The translations under genes were made by a program, and so were the position numbers. DNA of 64,000 bases, taken from positions 10,614-74,613 of the forward strand of contig JANOAN010000003.1 in assembly GCA_031411135.1 (NCBI GenBank). The letters run 5' to 3'. Position 1 is the stretch's first letter; every line of letters begins with the position of its first letter. The stretch is from a bacterium (GTDB lineage Bacteria; Patescibacteriota; Minisyncoccia; Phycocordibacterales; CAIZLB01). Under the pieces are notes generated by a model. It was not told where the DNA came from and searched no databases. It saw only the letters and a list, made by a program, of their open reading frames with translations. Shown here piece after piece: positions 48,724 through 63,551 of this stretch.

Positions 48724-48798
48724 GCTCTCGTCGTTCAATGGATAGGACGTAACTTTGCGGAAGTTATGATACAGGTTCGATTCCTGTCGAGAGCACCA
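48724..48798 (+). tRNA. tRNA-Arg (anticodon reads GCG), encoded CCA
   Basis: GCTCTCG acceptor, D-arm GTTCAATGGATAGGAC, anticodon stem TAACT/AGTTA with loop TTGCGGA, T-arm ACAGG-TTCGATT-CCTGT, CGAGAGC-A-CCA. Confidence 0.7.
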
Positions 48799-48870
48799 CT
48801 AAGGCCGATGCGGAGGCCTCATATTTCTCAACGTTTTTTCGTTGTTGAAATTGAGCACCCCGCTTGGAAT

Positions 48871-50268
48871 CTAACTTTTAGGAAGGATACCTTCTTTTTG
48901 CTGTTTTTGATTGGGCTGACTTACAGGAGGTGTGTCTTTCAACAGCTCATCTGATTCAGTCTTATCAACAGATATCTTTCCATCTTTCAAAATCAATTTG
49001 CTTTTCAGGTTTACTAAAACATGACGTTGTTCGTAAATGTTGCCATCTTTCAGGAGAAACTTCATATATTTTTTGATATCAATATCTCCTAATTCCTTAC
49101 TCTCAAATCCACCTGGATCACCGATGACATCTCTGTGAAAACGATACATTCGATTTACATCCATATCCATCTGTCCTCGTACGCCGAGTTCGTTAATGGA
49201 TAATTCATCAACTATCTCACAGAGTGATTTTATGAGATCCTCCTCACGGATATATGTCATAGGACAATGATGATCTTTTGTCCTTGAACAACCATAATAG
49301 ACGTATCTCATAATAGTTCCGTCTTTCAAAGCTTTAAACTTTTCTTCAGCAGTAACACTTGAACCACAGAGTCCGCATTTAATTAAATGTGTGTAAGCAA
49401 AATCTTTTTTGTAAATCCGTGTCGCTCGTTTTTTCTTCTTCATTTCTTCTCGCACTTTATCAAAAAGTTCCTTTGTGATGAGTGGTTTATGTACACCATG
49501 GTACCAATTACCGCTTTTCTTAGGGTACTCAAACATGCCGTAATAAAAAGTTCTAGTGAGAGCTAGTTGTACACCACTTAATGCAATATGTTTTCCGTTT
49601 GGTGATCTAAAGTCTAGTTCATCAGTAAGCCAATCTCGTATACGATGTTGACTCCAACCCTCGGACGCTTTTTCAAACATCATTTGGACTATGTGTGCTC
49701 GAACTGGATCTATCTTCACAATACCTCGATTACCTTTCTCTCCAACATTCGTGTATCCCAAAGGTGCAACCCCTGGCCACAACCCTTTTTCTACAAGAGT
49801 TCTCAAACCTCTTTTTACATTTATACCTTTAGTATCATTTTCAAGTTTTGCTTGTGATCCAAGAATCATGAGTAGAAATTTCTCGTTAGGTGAGTTAGAA
49901 AAGTTTTGATTATATGTCCTGATTTCTAAAAGTTGCTTACTATCCATAAGATCAATCAGTCTACCTAGATCACCTGCATTTCGGCTAAGTCTATCTGGAT
50001 GCCACGTAAGGATTGCATTGTATTTTCCAGCCTTTATCTCGTCGATCATTTTATTAAAAACTTCACGCTCACCAGAATTTTTAGCTGAGTGGGCTTCAGT
50101 TTTTACTGTCACTACTGAAAGATGATCTCGTTCGGCAAGTTTATTCATCTCACTTATCTGAGATTCAATTGACAAAGCTTGTCGTTCTTCGTCCTCGCTA
50201 GATTTTCTGGCGTAGAGGCAGTAGATGAGGGCTGGAGATGGCACTTCTTTTACAGCAGAGTTTTCCAT
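48871..50268 (-). CDS. large serine recombinase (resolvase/invertase N-terminal catalytic domain + recombinase domain + zinc ribbon)
   Basis: 'LYARKSSEDEERQALSIESQ' catalytic Ser region, 'PLGYTN', and a 'CGLCGS...YYGCS...HHCP' Zn ribbon. Confidence 0.85.
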   Translation of the reverse strand: MENSAVKEVPSPALIYCLYARKSSEDEERQALSIESQISEMNKLAERDHLSVVTVKTEAHSAKNSGEREVFNKMIDEIKAGKYNAILTWHPDRLSRNAGDLGRLIDLMDSKQLLEIRTYNQNFSNSPNEKFLLMILGSQAKLENDTKGINVKRGLRTLVEKGLWPGVAPLGYTNVGEKGNRGIVKIDPVRAHIVQMMFEKASEGWSQHRIRDWLTDELDFRSPNGKHIALSGVQLALTRTFYYGMFEYPKKSGNWYHGVHKPLITKELFDKVREEMKKKKRATRIYKKDFAYTHLIKCGLCGSSVTAEEKFKALKDGTIMRYVYYGCSRTKDHHCPMTYIREEDLIKSLCEIVDELSINELGVRGQMDMDVNRMYRFHRDVIGDPGGFESKELGDIDIKKYMKFLLKDGNIYEQRHVLVNLKSKLILKDGKISVDKTESDELLKDTPPVSQPNQKQQKEGILPKS

Positions 50269-50309
50269 AACTCATATTTTAATAAAAATACAGATGGAAA
50301 TCTAGATAT

Positions 50310-51629
50310 TTATTCCATCATCAGCTTCTTATCCTTCAGCAATATTCTACTCTTAATACAACTTAGCACTTCTCGCTTCTGCAACATCGTCCCGTGCTGA
50401 AGCATATGCTTTGCAAATGTTTTGATTGATACGTCTTTGTGCTTCTTCGATTGCCCTAGATCCACCCCAAGCACTCCAGTCTGGAAAAGTGCATATCGTG
50501 CCACTTCTTCTTGAAGCTTCTGCTTCAGTTCTGATTTATCCATGCTCATCTTGTCTATTATCGGTAACATCTCTGATATCAATATATCCTCTTTCACTGA
50601 CTCGTTCGGACAGTCTCGATCCTTCAATTTGGTGCACCTGTAGTAGACATGAGCGTTGAAACCACCATCCTTCAATTCCTTGATCTTCTCCTCTGCTGTT
50701 ATGCCCGATTCGCAGTAGGCACAGTGGAGCATTCTGGTGAAGGCAAACTCTCTGCCGTAGGCTTTTTTCTTCTCAACCCTGATTTTGTCCTGCACCAGAT
50801 CGAAAAGTTCCTTGGTGATGATCGGTGTATGCTTGCCTGTATACCAGTCACCGCTTCCAACAGGATATTCAAACACTCCGTAGTAGAAGGTCAGCCTTAA
50901 TATTCGGTAGATATTACCTAATGTCATCGGCTTGTTGCCTCTTGTTACAAATTTCACATCTTTGAGCCACCTATATATCTTCCTACCAGAGTAGTTTTCA
51001 GTGGCTACTTTTTCAAATATTTCTTTTATGAGTGGTGCTCTTACGGGATCAACTTCCACCTGACACTTTTTATCCACATTTTTGCTGTTTAGGTATCCAG
51101 TTGGTGCTGTGCATGGCCAGAGTCCCATCTGGCATCTTGCCCTTAGGCCTCGCTTCACATTTACCACCTTATTGTCGTTCTCAAGCTTTGCCTGTGATCC
51201 TAGAATCATGAGCATAAATTTCTCATTCGGCGTGTTGCTGAACTTTTGTCCATAGGTGCGTATCTCATGAAGCTTCTTCTGATCCATCAAGTCTACGATT
51301 CTTCCAAGATCACCTGCGTTTCGTGCAATTCTATCAGGTGCCCACGTCAGTATTCCATTGAACTTACCCTGATTGATCTCATTCACGATTTCGTTGAACA
51401 CTGGTCGTTGCCCCGCTTCCTTGGCAGAATGCGACTCTTGTTTTCTTGCCACAATCTCTAATCCCTCATTAATCGCCATCTTCTCCATTTCCCGTATCTG
51501 GCTATCAATGGAGAGTACCTGCTTATCCTCCTGTTCTGTACTTTTCCTTGCGTAAAGCACGTATTTAACCCTTACAGGGATTGATATTTTGGCCTCCATC
51601 CCCACTGGCCTTTGTATTGTATGATCCAT
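50310..51629 (-). CDS. large serine recombinase, paralog of 48871..50268
   Basis: 'LYARKSTEQEDKQVLSIDSQ', 'PTGYLN', and 'CAYCESGITAEEK...YYRCTKLKDRDCP'; ~45% identical to the neighbouring recombinase. Confidence 0.85.
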   Translation of the reverse strand: MDHTIQRPVGMEAKISIPVRVKYVLYARKSTEQEDKQVLSIDSQIREMEKMAINEGLEIVARKQESHSAKEAGQRPVFNEIVNEINQGKFNGILTWAPDRIARNAGDLGRIVDLMDQKKLHEIRTYGQKFSNTPNEKFMLMILGSQAKLENDNKVVNVKRGLRARCQMGLWPCTAPTGYLNSKNVDKKCQVEVDPVRAPLIKEIFEKVATENYSGRKIYRWLKDVKFVTRGNKPMTLGNIYRILRLTFYYGVFEYPVGSGDWYTGKHTPIITKELFDLVQDKIRVEKKKAYGREFAFTRMLHCAYCESGITAEEKIKELKDGGFNAHVYYRCTKLKDRDCPNESVKEDILISEMLPIIDKMSMDKSELKQKLQEEVARYALFQTGVLGVDLGQSKKHKDVSIKTFAKHMLQHGTMLQKREVLSCIKSRILLKDKKLMME

Positions 51630-51634
51630 ACCTA

Positions 51635-51684
51635 CATTGATGACAGAGACCCTCCGAGGAGTCTAGGAGGGGTCAGTTGGTAAC
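51635..51684 (+). repeat. 50-bp direct repeat copy A (duplicate of the KAP gene RBS/start region)
   Basis: 'cattgatgacagagaccctccgaggagtctaggaggggtcagttggtaac' versus 52084..52133, about 80% identical. Confidence 0.6.
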
Positions 51685-52022
51685 TAATTTCGCTCAATCT
51701 CTGATTTTTTGCTCAATCCTTTCTCTTTAAAAAACCCGTCTATCATTTTTACGTTACCTTTCGCTCCAACGTGCCAGATGTTAACTTCGTTAACTGGAAT
51801 GATTTCTTTGTAATCGTAAATTGTTACCACTGTAGGCTTTTTATGTTTTGTTTTGAAAGACCATTCGACACGCACCTTTCCATCGCTAGATTTCCACCTT
51901 TCATCAGTAACTCTGTCGTTGGGTTTACCTAGACAACTGACAAGATGCTCGTATGAAGAAATGGTATATCCACTGAAACTTGAGCCGTTTATATCCTTTG
52001 GTTCTGCTTTGATGAATTTCAT
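51684..52022 (-). CDS. hypothetical protein (112 aa) flanked by direct repeats
   Basis: ORF bracketed by the two 50-bp repeats. Confidence 0.45.
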   Translation of the reverse strand: MKFIKAEPKDINGSSFSGYTISSYEHLVSCLGKPNDRVTDERWKSSDGKVRVEWSFKTKHKKPTVVTIYDYKEIIPVNEVNIWHVGAKGNVKMIDGFFKEKGLSKKSEIERN

Positions 52023-52083
52023 ATGTTTTTTGCTTGTTAATTCGGCCTACGTCAGAGTCACTTGTAGCGGGTTTTCACAAACA

Positions 52084-52133
52084 CATTGATGACGCAGACC
52101 ACTTAGGAAGTCTAGGAGGGGTGAGTTGGTAAT
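52084..52133 (+). repeat. 50-bp direct repeat copy B, containing the AGGAGG RBS and TTG start of the KAP NTPase gene
   Basis: 'cattgatgacgcagaccacttaggaagtctaggaggggtgagttggtaat'. Confidence 0.6.
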
Positions 52134-54897
52134 TTTTAGCCTTAAAAACTTAGTAAATAGGCAATTTTTATGGTATAATGTTGTCATCATGTCAGAAGAC
52201 GAGCAAGATAAAATCAGCAAATGGGACACGCCTTCCAAGAAGGACATGTTCGGCCGTGAGCCGTTTGTAGATACGATAGTAAAAACAATCCAATCGTCTC
52301 AAGAAGGCTTTAACTTGGGTGTCTCTGCTCGATGGGGAGAAGGTAAATCATCAATCTTAGAACAGCTCCAGCCAAAACTAGAAGAGTTGAATTACAAAGT
52401 CTTAACTTTTTCTCCTTGGAAATATACACAGGACAATATATCAATTAAAAGAAAGTTTATAATCGATATCTACTCCCAACTTGGAGAGGATTATGATGAT
52501 ACTGAACTATACAGTTCAACAGAAAGTCAGAAAGAACTAAAAATTGATGCTTACGATAGTATATTTTTTAATAGACTCGGAATTTTTATTCGCTACGGCC
52601 TAACGGTATCTATTTTATTTTTGGCAGTTCTTTTTATTATAAAGTATTGGTTTGGATTTACAATAAATATTACACAGACTTTTTCCACCAATTTATTTAT
52701 TCCTATACTTGCAGCACTTTTACCCATTGTCACAAAAATTACAGAAGTGACGGTAAAACATACAACCCCAAAAATAGAATCTGCCGAGCAATTTGAAAAA
52801 AGATTTAATGACGTTATAAACGGAATAATGGGCACCCATAAATCGCCGGGGAAAATAATCATTTTTGTCGATGATCTTGATCGATGCAATCATGTTGAAG
52901 TTGAACAGATACTTACAGCTTTATTTACATTTTTCAACAATAAGCATTGTACTTATGTGATTACAGCTGATCACACTGTTATTCGAAGATATATAAGTAG
53001 TTTCTTAAAGCTAGAAAACGATCTTAAAGATGATGGAACGGTAGATATGAAAAAGACAGAAGAGACTAGACAAAAAGAGGCGACGGAATATTTAAAAAAG
53101 ATTTTTCAGATTAACTTTATTGTTCCAAGGATACCTAGTGATCTACTTGAACCTTGGATAAGTGACCTACTGAAGGCCAGTCCTGTTATTGAGTTCAAGA
53201 ACCATTACGCAAAAGATTATTTAGTAAACCTCATACTTAATAATTTTCAGGGCAATCCCAGAAAGATAAAGCACTTTATTCGAACTTTAGCATTCCAATT
53301 AGAAGCAATTAATGAAAAAATCCAATGTCTTGCGGATCAAAAGGTAGATGAGAGTAAAAACCTCAACAAGGTTAAGGATTCTCCAGAGCTTTTAGCAAAA
53401 ATACTCATTCTCCAAGATAGGTTCCCTAACTTTTACGAGAAGATCGTATTAGAGCCAAAGCTTTTACAAAGACGTGAAGCTGGCGAGATGGATGAAGACA
53501 AAGAATTACAGAACCTTCTTGCTCAAGAGCCAAAATTCTTTAATTCGCTGACTCGTAATTCTACTCTGAAGACTATCGACCCTTATTACTTCCTGTACTT
53601 CTCAGGATCGACTGGCTTCGTGGAAACTGCTGTAGTCGACCCAGCGGAGGTCAAGGCTCTTGCAAGAAGTGCAGACTTTGACGGACTCACAAAAATAATT
53701 CGAGGTTTGACCGATGAGCCGAGAAACATGCAAGTTGAACATATAAAGCTTGAATTTGATTCTCCACAAATACAACCACCTGAAAAAGTAAATATTGTAA
53801 GAAGTCTTTTCCATACAGTTACTTTAATAGAAGAACCCAGCCTCAGACTCCAAAAGCTTAAAGAAATTCTTGATAATAAGACAAAGTACAAGCTTGAATT
53901 TGCATCCTTGCAGTCGGTTGATTTTGGAAACTTTATAACTTTTGCAGATATTGATGTAATAAACAAACTTTTTGTAGGTACTCCTTTCACAGATATTGCA
54001 ATGCAGACTCAAATTCTTAGTGCATTTATAAGCAAGCAAGATGAAATAAAAAATGTTGATGTTCTAAAAAAGTTTATTCAAGTTATTGCCACTGGCATTT
54101 CTAAGAACGATGCCAATTCTCAATCTTATCTAATATTGGCAAAAAAGATAAGTGATAAAAACTTTCTTGATGCAGATACGCTTCAGAATAGTTTGATTGA
54201 AACATATAAAAAGGCTCCCGATCCTTTAAAACAGGAACTTTTTGATACATTGCTTGATATTAAACCAAAGTTATCTGCACCAAAGCAACAGGAATTTGAA
54301 GAGATAATTCTAGCTGTTATTGAAAAAGACCCTATCGCCGAAAGTCTTGCGATGATTGGCAATATTCCTGTGAAGATTAATAAATCTAAATTAAGTATGT
54401 CGAAAGTCACTTCAGTAGTGAACAAAAGAATTTCTAGTTCAACAGATGTTGAAATTGCTCAGCTTGCAAATATTATGCTTCATCAAGCTATAAAAGATGA
54501 GCTTGGTCCAGATAATACAGAGCTAACACTCATTACTCTGGTCGAATTACTTGATTCTAAGGATCAACCAACGATAGCACTCATAAGAGGACGCCTTCCT
54601 GAATTCATAACTCATTCGACTAATAAGTCAAAGTTGCTAGATCAAGTATTGAAATCTGTAGAAACTGGCCCCCTTACGGAAAGTGCTCAAACGATGGATA
54701 CCTTGAAGAGCATGGATGATTTCTGGAACACCAATCCTTTTTTAAAAAAGGAACTTGTATCTAAATTGAAAGCTTCTTTGAAATGGATCGTGGATAAGGA
54801 TATAAAAAGTTTAGTAACAAAAAGTTTGGGAGAACTCGATCCTCCTCCTGAGCCCAAGAAGAAAAAAGAGTCCACTGAGCCTGCACCAGATAAATAA
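52126..54897 (+). CDS. KAP-family P-loop NTPase
   Basis: Walker A 'GEGKSS', two TM helices inserted before Walker B 'IIIFVDDLDRC' (the KAP hallmark); 923 aa. TTG start with AGGAGG 6 nt upstream. Confidence 0.75.
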   Translation: MVIFSLKNLVNRQFLWYNVVIMSEDEQDKISKWDTPSKKDMFGREPFVDTIVKTIQSSQEGFNLGVSARWGEGKSSILEQLQPKLEELNYKVLTFSPWKYTQDNISIKRKFIIDIYSQLGEDYDDTELYSSTESQKELKIDAYDSIFFNRLGIFIRYGLTVSILFLAVLFIIKYWFGFTINITQTFSTNLFIPILAALLPIVTKITEVTVKHTTPKIESAEQFEKRFNDVINGIMGTHKSPGKIIIFVDDLDRCNHVEVEQILTALFTFFNNKHCTYVITADHTVIRRYISSFLKLENDLKDDGTVDMKKTEETRQKEATEYLKKIFQINFIVPRIPSDLLEPWISDLLKASPVIEFKNHYAKDYLVNLILNNFQGNPRKIKHFIRTLAFQLEAINEKIQCLADQKVDESKNLNKVKDSPELLAKILILQDRFPNFYEKIVLEPKLLQRREAGEMDEDKELQNLLAQEPKFFNSLTRNSTLKTIDPYYFLYFSGSTGFVETAVVDPAEVKALARSADFDGLTKIIRGLTDEPRNMQVEHIKLEFDSPQIQPPEKVNIVRSLFHTVTLIEEPSLRLQKLKEILDNKTKYKLEFASLQSVDFGNFITFADIDVINKLFVGTPFTDIAMQTQILSAFISKQDEIKNVDVLKKFIQVIATGISKNDANSQSYLILAKKISDKNFLDADTLQNSLIETYKKAPDPLKQELFDTLLDIKPKLSAPKQQEFEEIILAVIEKDPIAESLAMIGNIPVKINKSKLSMSKVTSVVNKRISSSTDVEIAQLANIMLHQAIKDELGPDNTELTLITLVELLDSKDQPTIALIRGRLPEFITHSTNKSKLLDQVLKSVETGPLTESAQTMDTLKSMDDFWNTNPFLKKELVSKLKASLKWIVDKDIKSLVTKSLGELDPPPEPKKKKESTEPAPDK

Positions 54898-54956
54898 TCA
54901 AATGTTGGCAACCCATGCTTCGCAAGTCTATATTTTTAAGCTAAGATTCTTCTAAC

Positions 54957-55778
54957 ATGGCAAAGAAAATTTTGACTAACATAAAACAAAAACCTCACTT
55001 CTCTCACAGGGATTTTGTTCTGTATCTTGGCAATTCAACCGATATCCTCAATGAGCTTCCAGAAAATTCCATAGATATGATTTTTGCAGATCCTCCATAC
55101 ATGCTTTCAAACGGAGGATTCACTGTTCATGCAGGAAAGATGGTAAGTGTTGATAAAGGAGACTGGGACAAAAGCAAAGGATTTGATAGCGACTACTCAT
55201 TTCATAGAAAATGGCTAGAGGCCTGCTATCGAGTCCTCAAACCCCAAGGAACCATTTGGGTTAGTGGAACATATCATTCAATCTATCAATGTGGTCACGC
55301 TATTCAGTCTATCGGTTTTCATATTCTCAATGATATAAGTTGGTTCAAGCCGAACGCTTCGCCGAATTTAAGCTGTAGGTTTTTTACAGCCAGTCACGAG
55401 ACATTGCTCTGGGCTAGGAAACATAAAAAAGCAAAGCACACGTTCAATTATGAATTGATGAAAGGTGGAGAATGGTCTGAAGATTTTATTAAAAAACCAA
55501 ATCTACAGATGCGTTCTGTATGGGCAATTAATCCACCCAAAAAAGAAGAGAAAAAATTTACCAAGCATCCGACACAAAAACCACTTTCACTTCTAGAGAG
55601 GATTGTTCTCGCAAGTACAAACAAAGGAGATATAATCCTTGATCCTTTTACCGGTAGTTCCACAACAGGAATCGCTGCTAAAAAACACGGACGAAAGTTT
55701 ATCGGTATTGATACTGAGGAGAAATACTTAGCTCTTTCTCAAAAACGCTTTCAAGATTTAGTCGAGGCTGGTAATTGA
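54957..55778 (+). CDS. DNA N6-adenine methyltransferase, beta class (DPPY before FxGxG), M.DpnIIB/DpnA-like
   Basis: 'IFADPPYM' at aa ~43 and 'ILDPFTGSSTTG' near the C-terminus; 273 aa. Confidence 0.8.
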   Translation: MAKKILTNIKQKPHFSHRDFVLYLGNSTDILNELPENSIDMIFADPPYMLSNGGFTVHAGKMVSVDKGDWDKSKGFDSDYSFHRKWLEACYRVLKPQGTIWVSGTYHSIYQCGHAIQSIGFHILNDISWFKPNASPNLSCRFFTASHETLLWARKHKKAKHTFNYELMKGGEWSEDFIKKPNLQMRSVWAINPPKKEEKKFTKHPTQKPLSLLERIVLASTNKGDIILDPFTGSSTTGIAAKKHGRKFIGIDTEEKYLALSQKRFQDLVEAGN

Positions 55779-56616
55779 CTATTACTACTTCGGATATCTT
55801 TCCTCTCTTGTCAGATTTTGAATTAATCATTCGGCTAGCATATACAGGAATCTGCTTATAGCCAGAATATATTTCCTTAATGAATGGTGCACTAGAATTA
55901 CTAAGCATTACATATACGCCCTTTTTATCTAGCTCGATAAATAAATCTCTAAGCTTTATTTGATCATCCTTAGAGAAACTATCTTTACTATAACTTGTAA
56001 ATGATGATGTCTCTGATAAAGGATGGTACGGGGGGTCGAAGTATACAAAGTCTCCAGCCTTAGCATTTTTCACAGCATCAGCAAAGGATCCACTAGTAAT
56101 TTTTGTATGAGAAAGCATCTCAGATACAAGTTTTAGGTTTTCTTCGTCCACAATCTTTGGATTCGTATAGCTTCCCATAGGAACATTAAATCCACCCTTT
56201 GAGTTTTCTCTATAGACACCATTGAAGGCTGTCTTGTTTAGAAAAAGAAAGTATAGACTCTTTTTGAAATCGTCAGCAGGGAGTGAATTATACTTTTCTC
56301 TGATTGAGTAATAAAACTCTTTTCTTTCTTCTGTATTTTTTGATATAAAATCTTTCTCAATTTTTCTTAAAGACTTAATCAATTCGCCAACATTATCTTT
56401 GATGTTTTTATAGGTTTGAACTAGAGTCTTGTTCACATCGTTTATGTGAGCCTTCTTTGGATTCAATGCAAAGAATACCGCACCTCCACCGATAAACGGT
56501 TCAAAATACGAATTGTACTTTTGGGGAAAGAGAGCATCTAACTGTGTCAAAAGCTGGGTCTTACCCCCAACCCATTTAAGGAACGGCTTAGCTTTCTTAG
56601 AAATATCTATCTTCAT
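55699..56616 (-). CDS. Dam-family DNA adenine methyltransferase (alpha class), M.DpnIIA/DpnM-like, probable GATC specificity
   Basis: 'LKWVGGKTQL', 'FEPFIGGGAVFF' and 'FVYFDPPYHP'. Confidence 0.8.
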   Translation of the reverse strand: MKIDISKKAKPFLKWVGGKTQLLTQLDALFPQKYNSYFEPFIGGGAVFFALNPKKAHINDVNKTLVQTYKNIKDNVGELIKSLRKIEKDFISKNTEERKEFYYSIREKYNSLPADDFKKSLYFLFLNKTAFNGVYRENSKGGFNVPMGSYTNPKIVDEENLKLVSEMLSHTKITSGSFADAVKNAKAGDFVYFDPPYHPLSETSSFTSYSKDSFSKDDQIKLRDLFIELDKKGVYVMLSNSSAPFIKEIYSGYKQIPVYASRMINSKSDKRGKISEVVIVNYQPRLNLESVFEKELSISPQYQYR

Positions 56617-56696
56617 GTATTGATTTTATCATTTTTTGATACCGATTCCTATCTTTCATTGTTCTAAGCCCTATTTTGTGATTTAATTGCATTATT

Positions 56697-57230
56697 ATGA
56701 AAGTCGGAGGTATCGGAGGAACAAACACAAAGTCGGGGCTACACTTTGAAGGAAAGGTGGATTTTCTCGAGGCCCTCAAAATAGTAAAGGGCTATGAAAT
56801 AAAGGATGACGGGTCTATCCTTTTCGAAGGTAAGGTTGTAGCTCTCAATCTCCGAAAATACAAGCTCTACGAATTTCTAGAAAGTAAAGGTGTTAATCAC
56901 AAAGAAATACTTTCAAAACGTCTTCTCCCTGATGATGCTATCTTGGTACTCAACACGAATTCATTTTACGTAATTGAAATTAAATTCCAACAGGTTGCTG
57001 GTTCTGTGGACGAAAAATTGCAGACATGCCATTTCAAAAAGAGACAGTACGAAAAATTGATGAATTCACTCGGTGTAAAAGTGGAATATATCTACATCTT
57101 AAGTGACTGGTTCCAAGCTCCTGCGTACAAGGATGTTCTCGCTTACATTAAAGAGGTTGATTGCGATTATTTCTTCGAAGAAATAACTCTAAACCGTCTC
57201 GGGCTCCCATCTCCAACAGAGACTATCTAA
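56697..57230 (+). CDS. putative PD-(D/E)xK restriction endonuclease (short; DpnII/MboI-like catalytic core)
   Basis: 'DDAILVLNTNSFYVIEIKFQQVAGSVDEKL' resembles the R.DpnII 'DFVIKNEQVLYLIEVNFYSGSGSKLNE' core. Only 177 aa, so it lacks the DpnII N-terminal domain. Confidence 0.4.
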   Translation: MKVGGIGGTNTKSGLHFEGKVDFLEALKIVKGYEIKDDGSILFEGKVVALNLRKYKLYEFLESKGVNHKEILSKRLLPDDAILVLNTNSFYVIEIKFQQVAGSVDEKLQTCHFKKRQYEKLMNSLGVKVEYIYILSDWFQAPAYKDVLAYIKEVDCDYFFEEITLNRLGLPSPTETI

Positions 57231-57846
57231 ATCCTGGCATTGCTGATTGAAGTACTTCTGTATAGTGTTTCTTGTCGTCGATATAATCTCTAAGCGTAAG
57301 TAGTAGGTTTTTAAACATATAAGCCTCGGTATAAATCTTTTCATTCTTGCAGAAAAGTTCAATCATTATCGCAACGTAATCTAAAGACAGGGTGTAATCC
57401 TGCTCAATGTGTGCATACTTTTGTGTAATCTCATCAACGGTTTCAAGTTTATAGTTATTCCTATCTTCAACCGATGCGAAAGGCGTAGTTCTCTCATAAA
57501 AATCAATGTAGTACTGAACTATCTCTCGAACGTCTTTGCGATACTGAGGGATTTTCAGAAGAAGATCGACAACCCAAAATGTATGAGTCGGCGGTGTCAT
57601 TATTTTGTTCACTCCTGGCACGAGAATTTTTACTACGAAATCAATATCTGGTCTTGCACCTCTACTTCCTTGAAATAGACCAATCAAAGTTCCGTCTTTT
57701 GTGACATATGTCTTAAAAGCAGTTAGACGAGGTCTCAGTTGAGCGAGATTAGTTCCATCATAATATCTAGAGTTGTATTCGTGTGACATTACAGAAAGTA
57801 TAGCAAAAGCTAGGCTGTTGGTAACTAGAGCTTCGCAACCCTCCAT
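57223..57846 (-). CDS. hypothetical protein (207 aa)
   Basis: ORF convergent with the nuclease gene (8-nt overlap). Confidence 0.45.
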   Translation of the reverse strand: MEGCEALVTNSLAFAILSVMSHEYNSRYYDGTNLAQLRPRLTAFKTYVTKDGTLIGLFQGSRGARPDIDFVVKILVPGVNKIMTPPTHTFWVVDLLLKIPQYRKDVREIVQYYIDFYERTTPFASVEDRNNYKLETVDEITQKYAHIEQDYTLSLDYVAIMIELFCKNEKIYTEAYMFKNLLLTLRDYIDDKKHYTEVLQSAMPGFR

Positions 57847-57930
57847 ATCTAAGCTAAGGTACAGACAGATACCTCAGTTTTTGGTATCATGGTAATCACA
57901 ACAAAGACCTAACCCCTAGAAAACCCTTAG

Positions 57931-58015
57931 TTTCCTAGGATATGGTCGTAATAAAAACCGCTACAGTATAGAAGACTCCTCGTCAGAGTCACTGTAGCGG
58001 TCGCGTCTAGGAAAC
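57931..58015. repeat. nested inverted-repeat element (outer TTTCCTAGG/CCTAGGAAA, inner CCGCTACAGT/ACTGTAGCGG, innermost GACTC/GAGTC)
   Basis: Direct reading. A third CCGCTACAGT copy lies at 58117..58126, and 'cgtcagagtcacTtgtagcgg' recurs at 52050..52070. Confidence 0.55.
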
Positions 58016-58131
58016 TGGATGTGGGTTGAGCCGAAAGGTTCGATCACAATGGCGAGGGGTCTTCTGTCTCAAGGCTCAAAACTCCTCGCCACTTATTATT
58101 AGTTAATAAGCTTAAACCGCTACAGTGGCTT

Positions 58132-59091
58132 ATGAAAAATCAAATAAGGCGTATTCCGCCATCTGGCTACTTAATTGTAGTTCTGTTTCTAGTAACTTTA
58201 ATATTTCCAAAACACGCAAATGCAACATCAGGATCATGCTCATACCACGGAGGTGTCGCATGTAGTCTCAGGTCGGATTATGACGGCAGTGTAATTTGCA
58301 ACGACGGATGGAAAGATAGTTCAGTATCATTTTCAAATGCAGATGAGTGCAAAACATCCTTACCGTCATGCCCCTTACCTTCAGGTGCGAAATCTGATTG
58401 TGGCTCACTCCGTGCACAACTTGCACGAGGACAGTTGCTCGGCACTACGTTTGGAGACAATGAGCTAGCTCAGTGCGATGCTCAGAATACAACCTACGAT
58501 TCTGCCCAGTCTGCATATCAACAATGTCTTACTTCGCAGTCAGCAATACAATCTCAACAATTTAATAACTACGTGGATCAAAGTAAAACTCAAGATCAGG
58601 CTTTTAATCAGCAGATGCAGACCAAGTACGACGCATACTGTGTTTCATCACAAGGTGTAGGAAGTGTCTGGGTTGGCGAATTCGGTCCGAACGGATCATG
58701 TAAACCAACTAATTCTGATTTCTGGAAATCGTGTCAGGGAAAAATGGGTACAAATGCAACGTACGATAAATCTTCGGGGTATTGTACTTGTTATAGCGGA
58801 TACGTTGTAGATGGAGACAATCAATGTGTAACAGAAGTTCAGCCAAGCATCCAAACTCCAGATGTTCCACAGACACAACCTGTTGTCACTACTCCCATAC
58901 AAAAAGTAATTGCAGTAAAAAAGCCGATAACTAAACCGACCGTCGTTCCAGTCGTATCTGAACAATCTACTACAACCATAGCTCAACCCATTGTCACAGA
59001 TACTCCTACCGTCAAACCTATTGAAGATAAAAGCTGGTTTGGTTCACTGTTTGAAAAAATAGGAAGCTTCTTTACTAATCTATTCCACTAA
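58132..59091 (+). CDS. secreted cysteine-rich protein with a Thr/Pro/Val/Gln-rich C-terminal region
   Basis: Signal peptide 'LIVVLFLVTLIFPKHANA', 18 Cys in the first 230 aa, then 'PVVTTPIQKVIAVKKPITKPTVVPVVSEQSTTT'. Confidence 0.55.
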   Translation: MKNQIRRIPPSGYLIVVLFLVTLIFPKHANATSGSCSYHGGVACSLRSDYDGSVICNDGWKDSSVSFSNADECKTSLPSCPLPSGAKSDCGSLRAQLARGQLLGTTFGDNELAQCDAQNTTYDSAQSAYQQCLTSQSAIQSQQFNNYVDQSKTQDQAFNQQMQTKYDAYCVSSQGVGSVWVGEFGPNGSCKPTNSDFWKSCQGKMGTNATYDKSSGYCTCYSGYVVDGDNQCVTEVQPSIQTPDVPQTQPVVTTPIQKVIAVKKPITKPTVVPVVSEQSTTTIAQPIVTDTPTVKPIEDKSWFGSLFEKIGSFFTNLFH

Positions 59092-59481: not shown

Positions 59482-59877
59482 TTATCCTTGAAAATCTACC
59501 TGAAATCTATACATTCCCATTCCGCATGTTCCGTTTAAGGTTGCAACCTGTGGACTTCCTATATCAATATCTGTCGTTCCAGACTGAGGAAGTGACTTTG
59601 AAATATTCATACTTGGAATACGCACAGTTGAAGAGCAGTCGAATGTTCCATTGGTATCGAACCTAAGGATGCTTGGCACACCCGCCTTTGCAATACTGCT
59701 TCCTGGTTGGTATCCGCCCTTGGCATGAATCTCAATAATCTGTTTTCCGTCTACAATTGAGACATTGTTTGCGTTAGCGACTTGACCAGAACCTTTGGTA
59801 TTCGCATTTTTTGCAAACATAAATGCTCCTCCGATTAATACGACCGCCACGATAATTGATATAGTTGTTGCTTTCAT
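59482..59877 (-). CDS. small secreted protein (possible cupredoxin-like metal-binding protein) in the copper locus
   Basis: N-terminal TM/signal sequence; adjacent to the HMA-membrane and CopA genes. Confidence 0.4.
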   Translation of the reverse strand: MKATTISIIVAVVLIGGAFMFAKNANTKGSGQVANANNVSIVDGKQIIEIHAKGGYQPGSSIAKAGVPSILRFDTNGTFDCSSTVRIPSMNISKSLPQSGTTDIDIGSPQVATLNGTCGMGMYRFQVDFQG

Positions 59878-59890
59878 AAAGATGATTATA

Positions 59891-60916
59891 CTAAAAATTA
59901 AAGACTGGTGGAATGACCCCGATCACCACTAAACTGTTAATAAGGTTAAAGATTGCAAACATGATGACTACCAGCCCTGCTGACTTGAAGAATATGCCTG
60001 ACTTAGAGCTATTCTTGATACTGAACGAACTGAAGCTTACCAAGGCTAGTACAGGTAATGTCCCTAAAGCGAATGACAGCATTGTTAATCCTCCTTTTAG
60101 GAAACTGCCTGTAGTAAGTGTGTAAAGTTGCATTGATTGTGTAAATCCACACGGCAGAAAAAATGTAGCAATACCAACAAGGAGAGGTGTAAGAGTATGA
60201 TTAAACTTCGAAACATCAAGTGCATGCTTTGACATAAATTTCGGCATTGAGGGCTGTAGTTTTTTAGCCCACTGGAATACATCAAGAAGATTGATTCCAA
60301 GTATGAGCATAACAATTCCGATTATGAGACTTAAGGCAAATGATGCATTGGTACTTAAGGTGAATGCAGAGCCGATTGCACCTATCACTCCTCCGAGAAT
60401 AAAAAATGAGACTATTCGTCCGCCGTGGAACATGAGCTGTGGACGAATTTTGTCTCCTTCTTTTGCAAATGTTGCCGACATCGAAAGAACTATCCCTCCG
60501 ACAACAGCCATACAAGTTGAAAGTGAAGCAATGATACCGATTACAAATGCCGTACCATAAGTTACGTTGCCTCCACCCACAAGATTAATTAAACCAATTT
60601 TTTGCAGACCGAAAAACAGGACTGCAAAGCCTAATGCGATAGGTACAGCAATTTTAAAATCTGCCCAGTTCTTTTGAACCACTCGTTTTTCTATAGAAAC
60701 AGTATAACCATGAGGCTTGAGTGGAGCAGTAAGCTCCTCTGCGATCTGTTCAGGTGTCTTATCACCAAAATTTCCAGAAACTTCCACCGAATGATTCTTG
60801 AGACTTGCTTTAACAAAACTAATATTAGACAGCTCTCCAAGCTCACTTTCGGTCATAAGAACACAAGCGTTGCAATGTATACCGTGAATATGAAAAGTGT
60901 ATTTTTGTTCAGTCAT
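59891..60916 (-). CDS. heavy-metal-associated (HMA) domain fused to a polytopic membrane permease-like domain
   Basis: 'GIHCNACV' metal-binding motif, then about eight TM helices. Start trimmed to the ATG at 60916 ('MTEQKYTFHIHG') to remove a 77-nt overlap with copA. Confidence 0.6.
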   Translation of the reverse strand: MTEQKYTFHIHGIHCNACVLMTESELGELSNISFVKASLKNHSVEVSGNFGDKTPEQIAEELTAPLKPHGYTVSIEKRVVQKNWADFKIAVPIALGFAVLFFGLQKIGLINLVGGGNVTYGTAFVIGIIASLSTCMAVVGGIVLSMSATFAKEGDKIRPQLMFHGGRIVSFFILGGVIGAIGSAFTLSTNASFALSLIIGIVMLILGINLLDVFQWAKKLQPSMPKFMSKHALDVSKFNHTLTPLLVGIATFFLPCGFTQSMQLYTLTTGSFLKGGLTMLSFALGTLPVLALVSFSSFSIKNSSKSGIFFKSAGLVVIMFAIFNLINSLVVIGVIPPVFNF

Positions 60917-60920
60917 AAAT

Positions 60921-63215
60921 TTATAATTTCTGAGCCTTAATTCGTAATGAGTTCGACACCACTGATACACTTGAGAAAGCCATAGCAAGTCCTGCAAACA
61001 CAGGGTTCAAAAGCCAACCGAAAATTGGATAGAATGCACCAGCCGCAAGCGGAATACCGATAATGTTGTAGATAAATGCCCAGAAGAGGTTCTGCTTGAT
61101 TCCTCTCATGGTTATTTTGGAAAGCTTGATTGCTTTTACAAGTTTTGAGATGTCACCACCGAGAAGAGTAATGCCCGCTGATTCAATTGCAACATCAGTA
61201 CCAGTTCCCATTGCAATACCTACATCGGCTTGAGCCAAAGCAGGAGCGTCGTTCACTCCGTCACCTGCCATAGCCACTATTTTTCCCTGTGACTGTAGTT
61301 CCTTAATCTTTGCCAATTTATCTTGTGGCAAGACATGTGCAATTACCTCATCAATACCAACAAGCGACGCGATGTATTTTGCTGCTTCCTCATCATCACC
61401 TGTAAGCATGACAACTTTTATTCCAAGTTTATGAAGATTTTTAACAGCCTCAATAGATTCAGCTTTTATTTCATCTGCTACCATAACAAACCCAAAAGCT
61501 TTTTCTTTTGTGGATATAATAACAGGAGTCTTTCCTTGTGCGGTGAATTGCCCAATCTTTGTGAAATCAAAAGACAGATTTAAATCCTTTATTAATTTAG
61601 CGTTGCCGACAAAATATTCAGTACCACCTACTGATCCTTTCAATCCTTTTCCTTGAATACTTTCAAAATTCGAAACATCCCGAATTTCAATATTTTTTTC
61701 TTTAGCGTAATTCACAATCGCATTGGCAATCGGGTGCTCTGATTTTTTCTCAAGCGATGCAATTATAGATATAAATTCTTCATTTTTTAGACTTGATTGA
61801 TTTTCAATATCAACGAGTGTCGGCTTACCAATAGTGATTGTTCCTGTCTTATCAACCACGACAGTATCCACCTTGTGAAGCTTTTCAAGCGTCGCTGCAT
61901 CTTTAATAAGGATTCCTTCCTTAGCACCTTTACCAACACCAACAATAATTGCGGTGGGGGTAGCCAAACCAAGAGCACACGGACAGGCAATCACCAATAT
62001 TCCGACAAATGACACGAGACCGTCTGAAAGAGCTTGTGAAAAGCCTAAAGGTCCAGTTCCTAAAAGTAACCATGCTCCAAGAGTCACGAAAGCCAATATT
62101 AGAACTATTGGTACGAATACACTTGATATTTTGTCAGCTAATGCTTGGATTGGAGCCTTGCTTCCTTGAGCCTCCTCAACCATCTTTATGATCTGTGCGA
62201 GCAATGTTTCTGAACCCACTTTTGTGGCCTTAAATGTAAATGATCCACTTGTATTTATTGTTCCAGCTACAACACTGTCACCAATTTTCTTTTGTACTGG
62301 CATAGGCTCTCCAGAAATCATTGATCCATCTACAAACGATGAACCCTCTGTGATAACACCGTCAACTGGAATTTTTGCTCCTGGCTTTATGATAATTAGG
62401 TCTCCGTGCTTCACCTCATTTATTGAAATTTCTATTTCTTTTCCGTCACGAATTATCAGTGCTGTTTTCGCCTGGAGATTTAAAAGTTTTTCTATAGCAT
62501 CGCCGGTCTTTATCTTAGATCTAGCCTCCAAATATTTACCGAGAGCAATAAATGTAATGACTACAATTGTTACATCGTAATACGTGTGGGTCACATTAAT
62601 ATATGGTCGAAGTGCATCCTCAAATGCTGTGATTATAAAGCTATAGAGGAAAGCGACGGACGTACCGATTCCGATAAGGGTGTCCATGTTCGCCTTGCCG
62701 TAACGAAGAAAACGATAGAATCCTAGTAGATACGGTTTACCAACTACGAACAAAGTATATGTCGCAAAGATCGGGAGGAGATGATGAAAAAATTCACTGA
62801 TCGTATAGCTCATCGCAGGAATCGCACCATACTGAGCAAGAATATCCCAGCCCATTACAAAAATACTAATTATTGCTAGAGGAATTACTGACATTACTTT
62901 TGATCTCATGTCTGCCACTTCTGCGAGCTTTTCTTTTTTTGATTGGTTAAGACCTAGATGCTCCGCATGCTCTGAAGCACTCATTCCCATATCTCCTGCT
63001 GAGGGTACATCGAGAGAGTAACCTAGTTTTTCTATCTGCTTTGAGAGGTGTTGTGGATTAGTCTTTGACTCGTCAAAAGAGACTTTTGCTGTCTCTGTCC
63101 CATAATTAACCTCAACAGATTTAACGCCTTCAGTCTTTTTGAAAGTTTTTTCTATGATTCCTGCACAAGAAGCACAGTGCATACCCCTTACTTTGTAGGT
63201 TTTAGATTCATTCAT
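60921..63215 (-). CDS. copA: copper-translocating P1B-type ATPase
   Basis: N-terminal HMA 'GMHCASCAGIIE', 'CPC' ('ACPCALGLATP'), 'DKTGTIT' and 'GDGVNDAPAL'. Confidence 0.9.
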   Translation of the reverse strand: MNESKTYKVRGMHCASCAGIIEKTFKKTEGVKSVEVNYGTETAKVSFDESKTNPQHLSKQIEKLGYSLDVPSAGDMGMSASEHAEHLGLNQSKKEKLAEVADMRSKVMSVIPLAIISIFVMGWDILAQYGAIPAMSYTISEFFHHLLPIFATYTLFVVGKPYLLGFYRFLRYGKANMDTLIGIGTSVAFLYSFIITAFEDALRPYINVTHTYYDVTIVVITFIALGKYLEARSKIKTGDAIEKLLNLQAKTALIIRDGKEIEISINEVKHGDLIIIKPGAKIPVDGVITEGSSFVDGSMISGEPMPVQKKIGDSVVAGTINTSGSFTFKATKVGSETLLAQIIKMVEEAQGSKAPIQALADKISSVFVPIVLILAFVTLGAWLLLGTGPLGFSQALSDGLVSFVGILVIACPCALGLATPTAIIVGVGKGAKEGILIKDAATLEKLHKVDTVVVDKTGTITIGKPTLVDIENQSSLKNEEFISIIASLEKKSEHPIANAIVNYAKEKNIEIRDVSNFESIQGKGLKGSVGGTEYFVGNAKLIKDLNLSFDFTKIGQFTAQGKTPVIISTKEKAFGFVMVADEIKAESIEAVKNLHKLGIKVVMLTGDDEEAAKYIASLVGIDEVIAHVLPQDKLAKIKELQSQGKIVAMAGDGVNDAPALAQADVGIAMGTGTDVAIESAGITLLGGDISKLVKAIKLSKITMRGIKQNLFWAFIYNIIGIPLAAGAFYPIFGWLLNPVFAGLAMAFSSVSVVSNSLRIKAQKL

Positions 63216-63218
63216 ATT

Positions 63219-63551
63219 CTATTTTCTTTTAAGCCTATACACCTTAAGTATTTCTCCAATAGCCGTTTTTTCTTTCCCTTTCTGCATTTGTTTTACAACG
63301 CAAGTGCTCAGGTGATTTTCCATCAGAGCATCTTCAATGGTTGAAAGTGCCTGCTTTACGGCAGACGTTTGAGTTATGACATCAATACAATATGCATCTT
63401 TTAAGAGCATGTCCTGTAGACCTCTCACTTGACCCTCAACAATTTTTAACCGTCTAACCAGCTTTTGTTTTGCCTCATTCATATTATATATAATACCCCC
63501 TAGGGGGTATATGTCAATATTTAAGTATTGAAGTGTTTGTATAGAAACCAA
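63219..63551 (-). CDS. csoR: CsoR/RcnR-family metal-sensing transcriptional repressor
   Basis: ~110 aa helical protein; 'RLKIVEGQVRGLQDML...DAYCIDVITQTSAVKQAL' matches the CsoR W-X-Y-Z fold with its Cys/His ligands. Sits immediately upstream of copA. Confidence 0.7.
   Translation of the reverse strand: MVSIQTLQYLNIDIYPLGGIIYNMNEAKQKLVRRLKIVEGQVRGLQDMLLKDAYCIDVITQTSAVKQALSTIEDALMENHLSTCVVKQMQKGKEKTAIGEILKVYRLKRK

Follow-up and report, generated by a model that had tools for sequence, protein, structure and literature searches.

We have analysed a 64,000-nt stretch of a patescibacterial genome (contig JANOAN010000003.1, positions 10,614 to 74,613 of the forward strand; hereafter the window) and found that a group of inverted repeats immediately upstream of the gene starting at position 58132 of the window belongs to a LOOT RNA (Rfam RF03000), an assignment of which we are virtually certain. 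On the basis of the pairing patterns in this and related loci, we consider it fairly probable that the element is a bistable cis-acting leader of the 58132 gene, which would adopt two mutually exclusive folds, one exposing and the other hiding the start codon.

Identification of the element

The segment 57906-58045 on the forward strand matches the Rfam model over its full length (model positions 1-121) with 52.7 bits against a gathering score of 46.4 (E-value, 4.5e-7). Its Rfam fold consists of the hairpins P1-P4, and this core shows no difference from the Rfam family, the P1 loop, the long variable P2 and the two tetraloop hairpins all being present. The region 57900-58140 folds with a z score of -9.1 in comparison with dinucleotide shuffles. 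The element is genuine and non-random and belongs to a known RNA family. LOOT RNA occurs in the ultra-small bacteria of the candidate phyla radiation (CPR), and the relatives of the window are metagenome-assembled genomes (MAGs) of Paceibacteria and other Patescibacteria.

The LOOT motif was published in 2017 (Weinberg et al., PMC5737381) in a paper whose main text does not discuss it, and Rfam classes it as a small RNA (sRNA). Unusually many "cross-covariations" are remarked for LOOT in another paper (PMC7657543), and papers after 2017 touch on it in passing only; a proposed function was not found in the searchable literature, which does not cover the 2017 supplement. The Rfam model ends at P4. 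A conserved strand b', the hairpin P5, the box a2, the promoter, the leader position and the recombinase linkage, all explained below, lie outside the model and were not found in the same literature (again with the 2017 supplement not covered). The features of the leader in the window are as follows.

57862..57890, + strand: LOOT promoter, with -35-like CAGACA (57862-67), a 17-nt spacer and extended -10 TGgTATCAT (57882-90), from a promoter scan
57906..58045, + strand: LOOT core P1-P4 (Rfam RF03000)
57906..57947, + strand: P1 hairpin with conserved internal loop GACC-UAAC...GAUAU-GGUC; 100% and 86% of cells paired in helices 1 and 2
57957..58001, + strand: P2 hairpin (Rfam fold), with arm a at 57957-67 (ACCGCTACAGT), arm a' at 57991-58001 and inner stem 57974-78 / 57986-90
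57968..57990, + strand: strand b, the entire P2 interior, complementary to b' (duplex, -31.5 kcal/mol)
58003..58045, + strand: P3 (58003-22) and P4 (58024-45), each capped by a GAAA tetraloop; cells paired, 95.8% and 90.5%, with compensatory changes
58046..58068, + strand: strand b', conserved beyond the Rfam model, pairing with b or b2 (with b, 18 pairs, 15 with both sides changed)
58050..58091, + strand: P5 hairpin (b':b2), GGCGAGG...CCTCGCC; no U-tract after it, and no terminator in the scan
58092..58110, + strand: P6, a short hairpin of A and U only, CUUAUUA...UAAUAAG; an ATTAT[TC]A motif is found here in 22 of 108 loci
58114..58131, + strand: box a2, a copy of arm a with an A-rich foot, co-varying with P2 across loci
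58132..59091, + strand: downstream gene of 319 aa with an N-terminal signal-like segment, Cys-rich, no Pfam match and no hit in an exact look-up of the protein; the presumed regulated gene

The modules therefore follow in the order P1 - a - b - a' - P3 - P4 - b' - b2 - a2 - AUG. A preliminary description of the window, made from its letters alone, had listed several of these sequences, all of which are present with coordinates correct to within 1 nt. Its perfect 10-bp inverted repeat is CCGCTACAGT, which is real and forms the outer stem of P2. Three exact copies of CCGCTACAGT are present in the 64 kb, at 57958-57967 (+), 57991-58000 (-) and 58117-58126 (+), where about 0.1 is expected; when one mismatch is allowed, there are five matches against 1.14 expected, and none of 100 shuffles reached five. 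The repeat is in fact longer than had been noticed, because AAACCGCTACAGT at 57955-57967 recurs at 58114-58126 and ACCGCTACAGTG at 58116-58127 is the reverse complement of 57990-58001. GACTC/GAGTC (57974-78 / 57986-90) folds as a hairpin and is the inner stem of P2, and GGCGAGG...CCTCGCC (58050-58091), described as a second hairpin, folds as such and is P5.

The outer 9-bp repeat (TTTCCTAGG) that was said to enclose them is present, as GTTTCCTAG at 57931-39 and CTAGGAAAC at 58007-15, but the nested architecture is not a real unit. As a helix it would link the 3' strand of P1 to the 5' strand and loop of P3, and the closest relatives, L030 and L035, whose P3 is GTGTATCCGAAAGGATATAT, do not have it; we treat it as a chance match between P1 and P3, presumably a by-product of CCTAGG-rich stems. 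Among the candidate roles proposed at that time, a structured RNA is borne out by the LOOT score above the Rfam threshold, and the suggested analysis of fold and covariance revealed strand-specific G-U pairs and compensatory changes in the helices; a role of the boxes as binding sites of a recombinase or regulator did not hold up. The third box was correctly placed over the ribosome-binding region; it ends 5 nt before the ATG at 58132 and is the most informative part of the finding.

Helices and boxes conserved among LOOT loci

All family counts refer to loci from a set of at least 115 non-identical LOOT loci, which were collected by a protein-anchored genome scan followed by nhmmer and by DNA-pattern scans of viral contigs and of metagenome contigs (at least 120 matches listed for the latter). 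The patterns were built on the P1 sequence only, and therefore the sequence downstream was unselected. In the scan of viral contigs, 4 of 85 matches were LOOT and most were chance; when 20 other collected loci were submitted to Rfam, 19 passed its cut-off. Covariation was counted in an unfitted MAFFT alignment (A2) of 74 different arm types, and the pairings a':a2 and b':b2 were judged by permutation tests instead of column-wise pair counts because the intervening spacer aligns poorly. LOOT is found also on contigs classed as viral by IMG/VR (L091, L138, L144 and L150), and in one locus a tRNA gene lies 140 nt upstream of it (L242:1121-1191).

The loop of P1 is highly conserved: the columns of the CCUAA 5' bulge and the YAUGG 3' side, which read GACCUAACCCC...GGAUAUGGUC in the window (57906-57947), are invariant in 74 sequences. 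P2 is variable in sequence and almost perfect in pairing, its arms comprising 76 different 9-mers among 115 loci with complementarity kept and its a:a' stem being 98.5% Watson-Crick. Upstream of P1, the -10 hexamer TAnn[AT]T peaks 26-30 nt before the hairpin across loci, with the TGn extension in 71 of 112, and transcription in the window is predicted to start near 57897. A second promoter between P5 and a2 was considered for the ATTAT[TC]A motif at P6 and rejected, the motif being restricted to the aforementioned 22 loci.

Immediately after P4 stands b', with the consensus YCUGGYnnnGGGnYUUUUUGY. Its duplex with strand b of its own locus averages -25.5 kcal/mol against -15.0 for permuted partners, and the 18 pairs are 78-96% paired (slid controls, 37-46%), which is as good as P3 and P4. 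G-U makes up 17% of the pairs, and in 98% of loci stability favours the + strand over the - strand; the b:b' helix therefore appears to form in RNA of + polarity. Twenty base pairs with another strand are beyond the reach of a 23-nt loop as long as a:a' closes it, and P2 and b:b' should therefore be mutually exclusive. The alternative partner of b' is b2, and this P5 pairing averages -14.5 kcal/mol in the own locus against -10.7 after permutation.

Competition of b:b' with P2, together with a G+C-rich b' that is followed by UUUUUG in most loci, might call to mind attenuation, in which b:b' and the U-run would be an intrinsic terminator and P2 the antiterminator. This is extremely unlikely, since the U-run itself pairs and co-varies with an A-run in b (the window, in which the U-run is absent, has UCUUCU opposite AGAAGA) and forms the P5 loop in other loci, P5 of the window being followed by ACUUAUUAUUA. 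The two strands are moreover about 65 nt apart with two hairpins between them, and no terminator was found in the scan of 57700-58300.

The third box, a2, is one case of a pattern seen across the family. Of 108 loci, 49 have an exact copy of the P2 5' arm, 9 nt or longer, between b' and their ATG, while the figure for permuted pairs is 31 of 4320; the length distribution of the copies is bimodal, 29 arm types are represented, and the box mostly ends 3-5 nt before the ATG. Homologous downstream proteins stand behind LOOTs of differing arm type, each with a matching a2, and therefore the box follows P2 and not the gene. When the LOOT segment pairing best with the start region was sought in 56 a2-bearing loci, it was a' in 46 of them (mean z score, -3.5). 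L197 has a second arm-box copy 6 nt before the ATG of its second downstream gene (about +773 from P1), and L144 has two tandem boxes before its first gene (about +170 to +190).

The position of LOOT is that of a leader. An open reading frame (ORF) of at least 50 aa follows on the same strand in 103 of 105 loci, with its start at a median of 39 nt after b' (interquartile range, 32-49). In the window likewise, as expected for a cis-acting leader, the gene lies directly downstream on the same strand, the element has its own promoter, and the scan of 57700-58300 found no terminator between LOOT and the 58132 gene. The 108 downstream proteins fall into 78 clusters without a metabolic theme or common pathway; nucleases are included, most have no Pfam family, and 68 of the 108 are membrane or secreted proteins.

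Second-messenger riboswitches control varied gene sets, which the mostly membrane or secreted genes after LOOT resemble, and this invites the interpretation that P1 loop, P3 and P4 are the sensor for a small molecule or second messenger and that P2, b:b' and a2 are the expression platform. Leader position, exclusive helices and the highly conserved P1 and GAAA loops suit such a riboswitch. We nevertheless judge it quite unlikely, because the 78 clusters share no metabolic theme, the Rfam fold has four hairpins in series without a junction pocket, the element is linked to mobile elements, and no ligand can be inferred.

A proposed switch at the start codon

In the switch that we favour, LOOT would be transcribed rightwards from its own extended -10 promoter and would constitute the 5' leader of the 58132 gene. 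Fold 1 would contain local hairpins only, i.e. P2 (a:a' and the inner stem), P3, P4 and P5 (b':b2), and would leave a2 and the start codon single-stranded; it would form first during transcription and is read as ON. In fold 2, read as OFF, a' would form 16 bp with a2, the last of them immediately preceding the AUG, and b would form about 20 bp with b', so that the continuous strand 57968-58001 would be covered by b' and a2 and the start region would be buried. Membership of the family, the promoter, the leader position, the covariation of a:a', of b:b' and of a with a2, and the similar energies of the folds are shown by the analysis, whereas control of translation, and which of the two folds is ON, are what we infer. 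As for the trigger, our guess would be that the switch is kinetic and self-limiting, or else that P2 is opened by an RNA or protein factor, and we prefer both to a metabolite.

Energy calculations place the two folds close to each other. In the minimum-energy fold of 57900-58140, P2 gives way to a pairing of 57986-58001 with 58116-58131, which has 16 bp, two of them G-U, and reaches the nucleotide adjoining the AUG. When a':a2 or P2 was forced in the 56 a2-bearing loci, the energy of the former minus that of the latter was +0.86 +/- 3.8 kcal/mol; the corresponding energies in the window are -96.1 and -93.4 kcal/mol. The location of a2 is also meaningful in view of how translation may start in this lineage. 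GGAG or GAGG precedes 1 of 37 long ORFs in the window and, in the LOOT loci, 18 of 416; random sequence would give 6%, and thus there is no signal of Shine-Dalgarno use, which the lineage appears essentially to lack. Initiation independent of Shine-Dalgarno pairing needs an open, unstructured start region. Because the lineage seems to do without such pairing, an accessible start region is probably the determinant of initiation.

Several observations weigh against this switch. The start-occluding alternative pairing is present and co-varies in about half of the loci, including the window, and the other half lacks a2 and shows no complementarity between leader and start (mean z score, -0.5). Masking of the start is therefore not a universal function of LOOT, and the universal part would be the choice between P2 and b:b', with start masking as an add-on that is present in the window. 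In addition, a':a2 is almost purely Watson-Crick and has no strand bias, and sequence alone thus does not prove an action of a2 as RNA. Nor does a simple structural switch account for the purity of a:a', in which G-U is 1.5% of pairs against about 20% in P3 and P4 and 17% in b:b'; this scarcity holds in loci with and without a2, despite the 76 arm sequences. The Rfam assignment of LOOT to the sRNA type points elsewhere, and b:b' and a':a2 together make a pseudoknot, which lies outside the computed energies.

Serine recombinases and other copies of the P2 box

A further copy of P2 sequence, the neighbouring recombinase genes and the junction of an inserted island bear on the remaining explanations.

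48871..51629, - strand: two tandem large serine recombinase genes, 48871-50268 and 50310-51629 (465 and 439 aa; Resolvase + Recombinase + Zn_ribbon_recom), divergent to LOOT
52045..52079, - strand: S1, complementary to the 3' strand of LOOT P2, core 52050-52070 (duplex, -42.3 kcal/mol)
57817..57825, + strand: GTTGGTAAC core, right-hand junction of the island insertion, 81 nt upstream of P1, from spacer comparison

Of 114 LOOT loci, 34 contain homologues of the large serine recombinases, which are upstream and divergent in 25 and at a distance of 124-241 nt from P1 in 13. Conserved motifs, GTTGGTAAC among them, are found in the spacer that separates the recombinase from LOOT. Further cores in the window lie at 51676-51684, 52125-52132 and 54904-54912. 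The spacer of the window is split: 52071-52124 and 57817-57905 are colinear with the intact spacer of L215, with a score of 133 against 103 and 78 for contiguous controls. Because of this colinear alignment, the KAP NTPase and restriction-modification genes between the two parts (52133-57816) appear to be an insertion at the GTTGGTAA core. The expression "island edge" used in the preliminary description is thus appropriate in a looser sense, LOOT being the partner of a divergent large serine recombinase with an island inserted between them; the boxes themselves are not at insertion junctions, which lie at the GTTGGTAA core about 81-90 nt upstream of LOOT and therefore argue against the boxes as recombinase sites.

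The region 51634-57858 has an array-like appearance, in which four GTTGGTAA(C) cores (51676, 52125, 54904 and 57817) separate a 112-aa ORF, the KAP NTPase and the restriction-modification block from LOOT. The comparison covers L215, L035, L138, L200 and L226; wherever the recombinase of another locus stands away from LOOT, one core is found by the recombinase start and another about 100 nt before LOOT. From such arrangements, the GTTGGTAA cores look like the fixed insertion site of a serine-recombinase platform. A repeat, D2 (TGTTGGyAAC...CTTCGCAA...TAAGCTAAG, 74% identical), occurs at 54903-54945 and 57816-57858, preceding the start of an N6_N4 methyltransferase (54957) and the LOOT promoter, respectively, and it is this sequence that other loci conserve on the right of the insertion core. 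The tandem recombinase genes end 73 nt from a tRNA-Arg (gcg) gene (region 48724-51629), which may be the other boundary of the mobile region.

The copy at 52050-52070 reported in the preliminary description is real: CGTCAGAGTCACtTGTAGCGG matches 57981-58000 with a 1-nt (T) insertion. According to alignment A1, window positions 52020-52140 are homologous to the 5' end of the L035 serine-recombinase gene together with the spacer before it; codons 5-13 of that gene (AAACCGCTACAAGTGACTCCTGACGAGG) are complementary to the 3' strand of LOOT P2. In window positions 52040-52132 (copy 2 of repeat D1), the ATG has gone by a 13-nt deletion relative to L035 and so has the rest of the gene, and the 112-aa ORF (51684-52022, -) follows; by this alignment, the 52050 copy is a relic of such a gene's 5' terminus. 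A similar complementarity of a different arm type is located 8 nt before the recombinase ATG in L203/L191.

These copies are one ground for regarding LOOT as a trans-acting sRNA, in which the 3' strand of P2 (a' and the inner strand) would be an antisense seed masked by arm a and would target a-boxes at nearby mRNA starts, i.e. those of the cargo gene and sometimes of the recombinase. The idea overlaps in part with the proposed switch and agrees with the Rfam type. All extra a-type copies of at least 10 nt are at gene starts in mRNA sense (the second gene of L197, L203/L191, recombinase codons 5-13 of L035/L261 and the relic in the window), their duplexes have -35 to -43 kcal/mol against about -18 after permutation, and LOOTs without a2 need another target. 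We regard it as rather unlikely all the same. General antisense pairing between LOOT and recombinase starts is not supported, complementarity being found in only 3 of 34 recombinase-linked loci; arm 8-mers recur in the loci no more often than expected (128 copies, compared with about 135 for permuted arms); and in 98% of loci the conserved RNA is followed after about 39 nt by a gene start, with neither a terminator nor a conserved second promoter. We read the complementarity at recombinase starts as a sign that this antisense strand occasionally finds a target in trans, and not as a core feature.

The near absence of G-U from a:a' could have several reasons: both arms may pair with a third party, a duplex-specific nuclease may select against G-U, or the process may take place at the DNA level. 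Were the boxes to act at the DNA level, P2 would be a 45-bp palindromic attachment or binding site of the linked large serine recombinase, and box 3 and the 52050 copy would be half-sites left by recombination. In size and symmetry P2 is similar to the att site of a serine integrase (an imperfect palindrome of about 40-50 bp near the recombinase), although this is a weak feature alone, and the recombinase linkage, the Watson-Crick purity of a:a', the start of the S1-P2 homology at the palindrome centre and the occurrence of one LOOT type before different genes can be added. We think it very unlikely, because a protein could not track 76 arm 9-mers in 115 loci, a variety that fits base pairing instead, and because the island junctions are at GTTGGTAA and not at P2. 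The homology between a2 and P2 ends 11 nt short of the palindrome centre and so does not make a reciprocal hybrid site, the a-boxes, which are in mRNA sense, keep a fixed distance of 3-5 nt to start codons, and the remainder of the element is plainly an RNA of the + strand.

A DNA target may also be combined with an RNA, in that LOOT would be the programmable guide RNA of serine-recombinase mobile elements: the hypervariable P2 arms would pair with both strands of matching a-box DNA before cargo genes and direct the recombinase to capture or exchange the gene behind the box. The presence of one LOOT type before unrelated genes, with homology breaking at the ATG, fits this, as do the G-U scarcity of a:a', the extra boxes in L197 and L144 and the recombinase linkage. 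On account of the purity of a:a' and the break at the ATG, we keep for RNA-addressed recombination a probability that is small indeed; if true, it would mean an RNA-addressed, integron-like cassette system in CPR bacteria.

Three further observations concern neighbouring genes. The KAP NTPase ORF is listed with a TTG start (52126-52189) that overlaps the GTTGGTAA core, and the ATG at 52189 (MSEDEQDK...) is likelier. Just upstream of LOOT, a 207-aa protein without a Pfam match (57223-57846, -) has an 80%-identical homologue at the same position in L185 (1-492), where LOOT is of a different arm type. Downstream, a copper cluster at 59482-63551 (a 131-aa protein, an HMA-membrane protein, a CopA-type ATPase and a CsoR-like repressor) is found at 70-85% protein identity in 80 MAGs (L001-L080) with differing neighbours, some labelled as Saccharibacteria or even Coxiellaceae, and this copper-handling cluster is probably horizontally mobile itself.

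Significance and comparison with known systems

The third box is one instance of a family-wide pattern, and LOOT can be reread as a promoter-proximal leader of variable, mostly accessory genes, with two well-supported sets of exclusive helices and an address-like arm copied before the start codon. The proposed switch offers testable mutations and transcripts in bacteria with almost no understood gene regulation and no Shine-Dalgarno pairing. The linkage of LOOT to serine recombinases, with a fixed core between them, points to a recurrent mobile-element platform in Paceibacteria.

As in translational riboswitches and RNA thermometers, one strand of the leader (a') has two possible partners, an upstream strand (a) and the start region (a2). 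Unlike them, LOOT has no known ligand or sensor and no Shine-Dalgarno sequence, its competing strands are hypervariable exact copies, and there is a second competition, of b and b2 for b'. The hok-type mRNAs of plasmid addiction modules contain the refolding elements tac, fbi, ucb and dcb, and metastable co-transcriptional hairpins and long-range pairings set the access to the start. LOOT would resemble them as an mRNA of a mobile element with metastable hairpins and alternative pairings at the start region, but lacks a conserved toxin, an overlapping antisense gene and a 3' processing signal, and is followed by 78 clusters of downstream proteins.

In the class 1 integron platform, intI is divergent to the attI/Pc leader, after which exchangeable cassettes follow. 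The likeness consists in a recombinase, a short control region, an outward leader and variable genes, as well as insertions at a fixed core (GTTGGTAA) beside the recombinase; here, in contrast, the recombinase is of the serine and not the tyrosine type, there are no attC hairpins, and the leader is a large structured RNA. The bridge RNA of IS110 and the seekRNA of IS1111 are structured RNAs with variable segments encoded beside the recombinase. LOOT shares with them variable segments that co-vary with nearby DNA, and differs in that its recombinases belong to the Resolvase/Recombinase/Zn-ribbon family and not to the DEDD/Tnp (IS110) family, the variable segments form a closed stem instead of internal loops, and the co-varying box is at the start codon instead of the element end.

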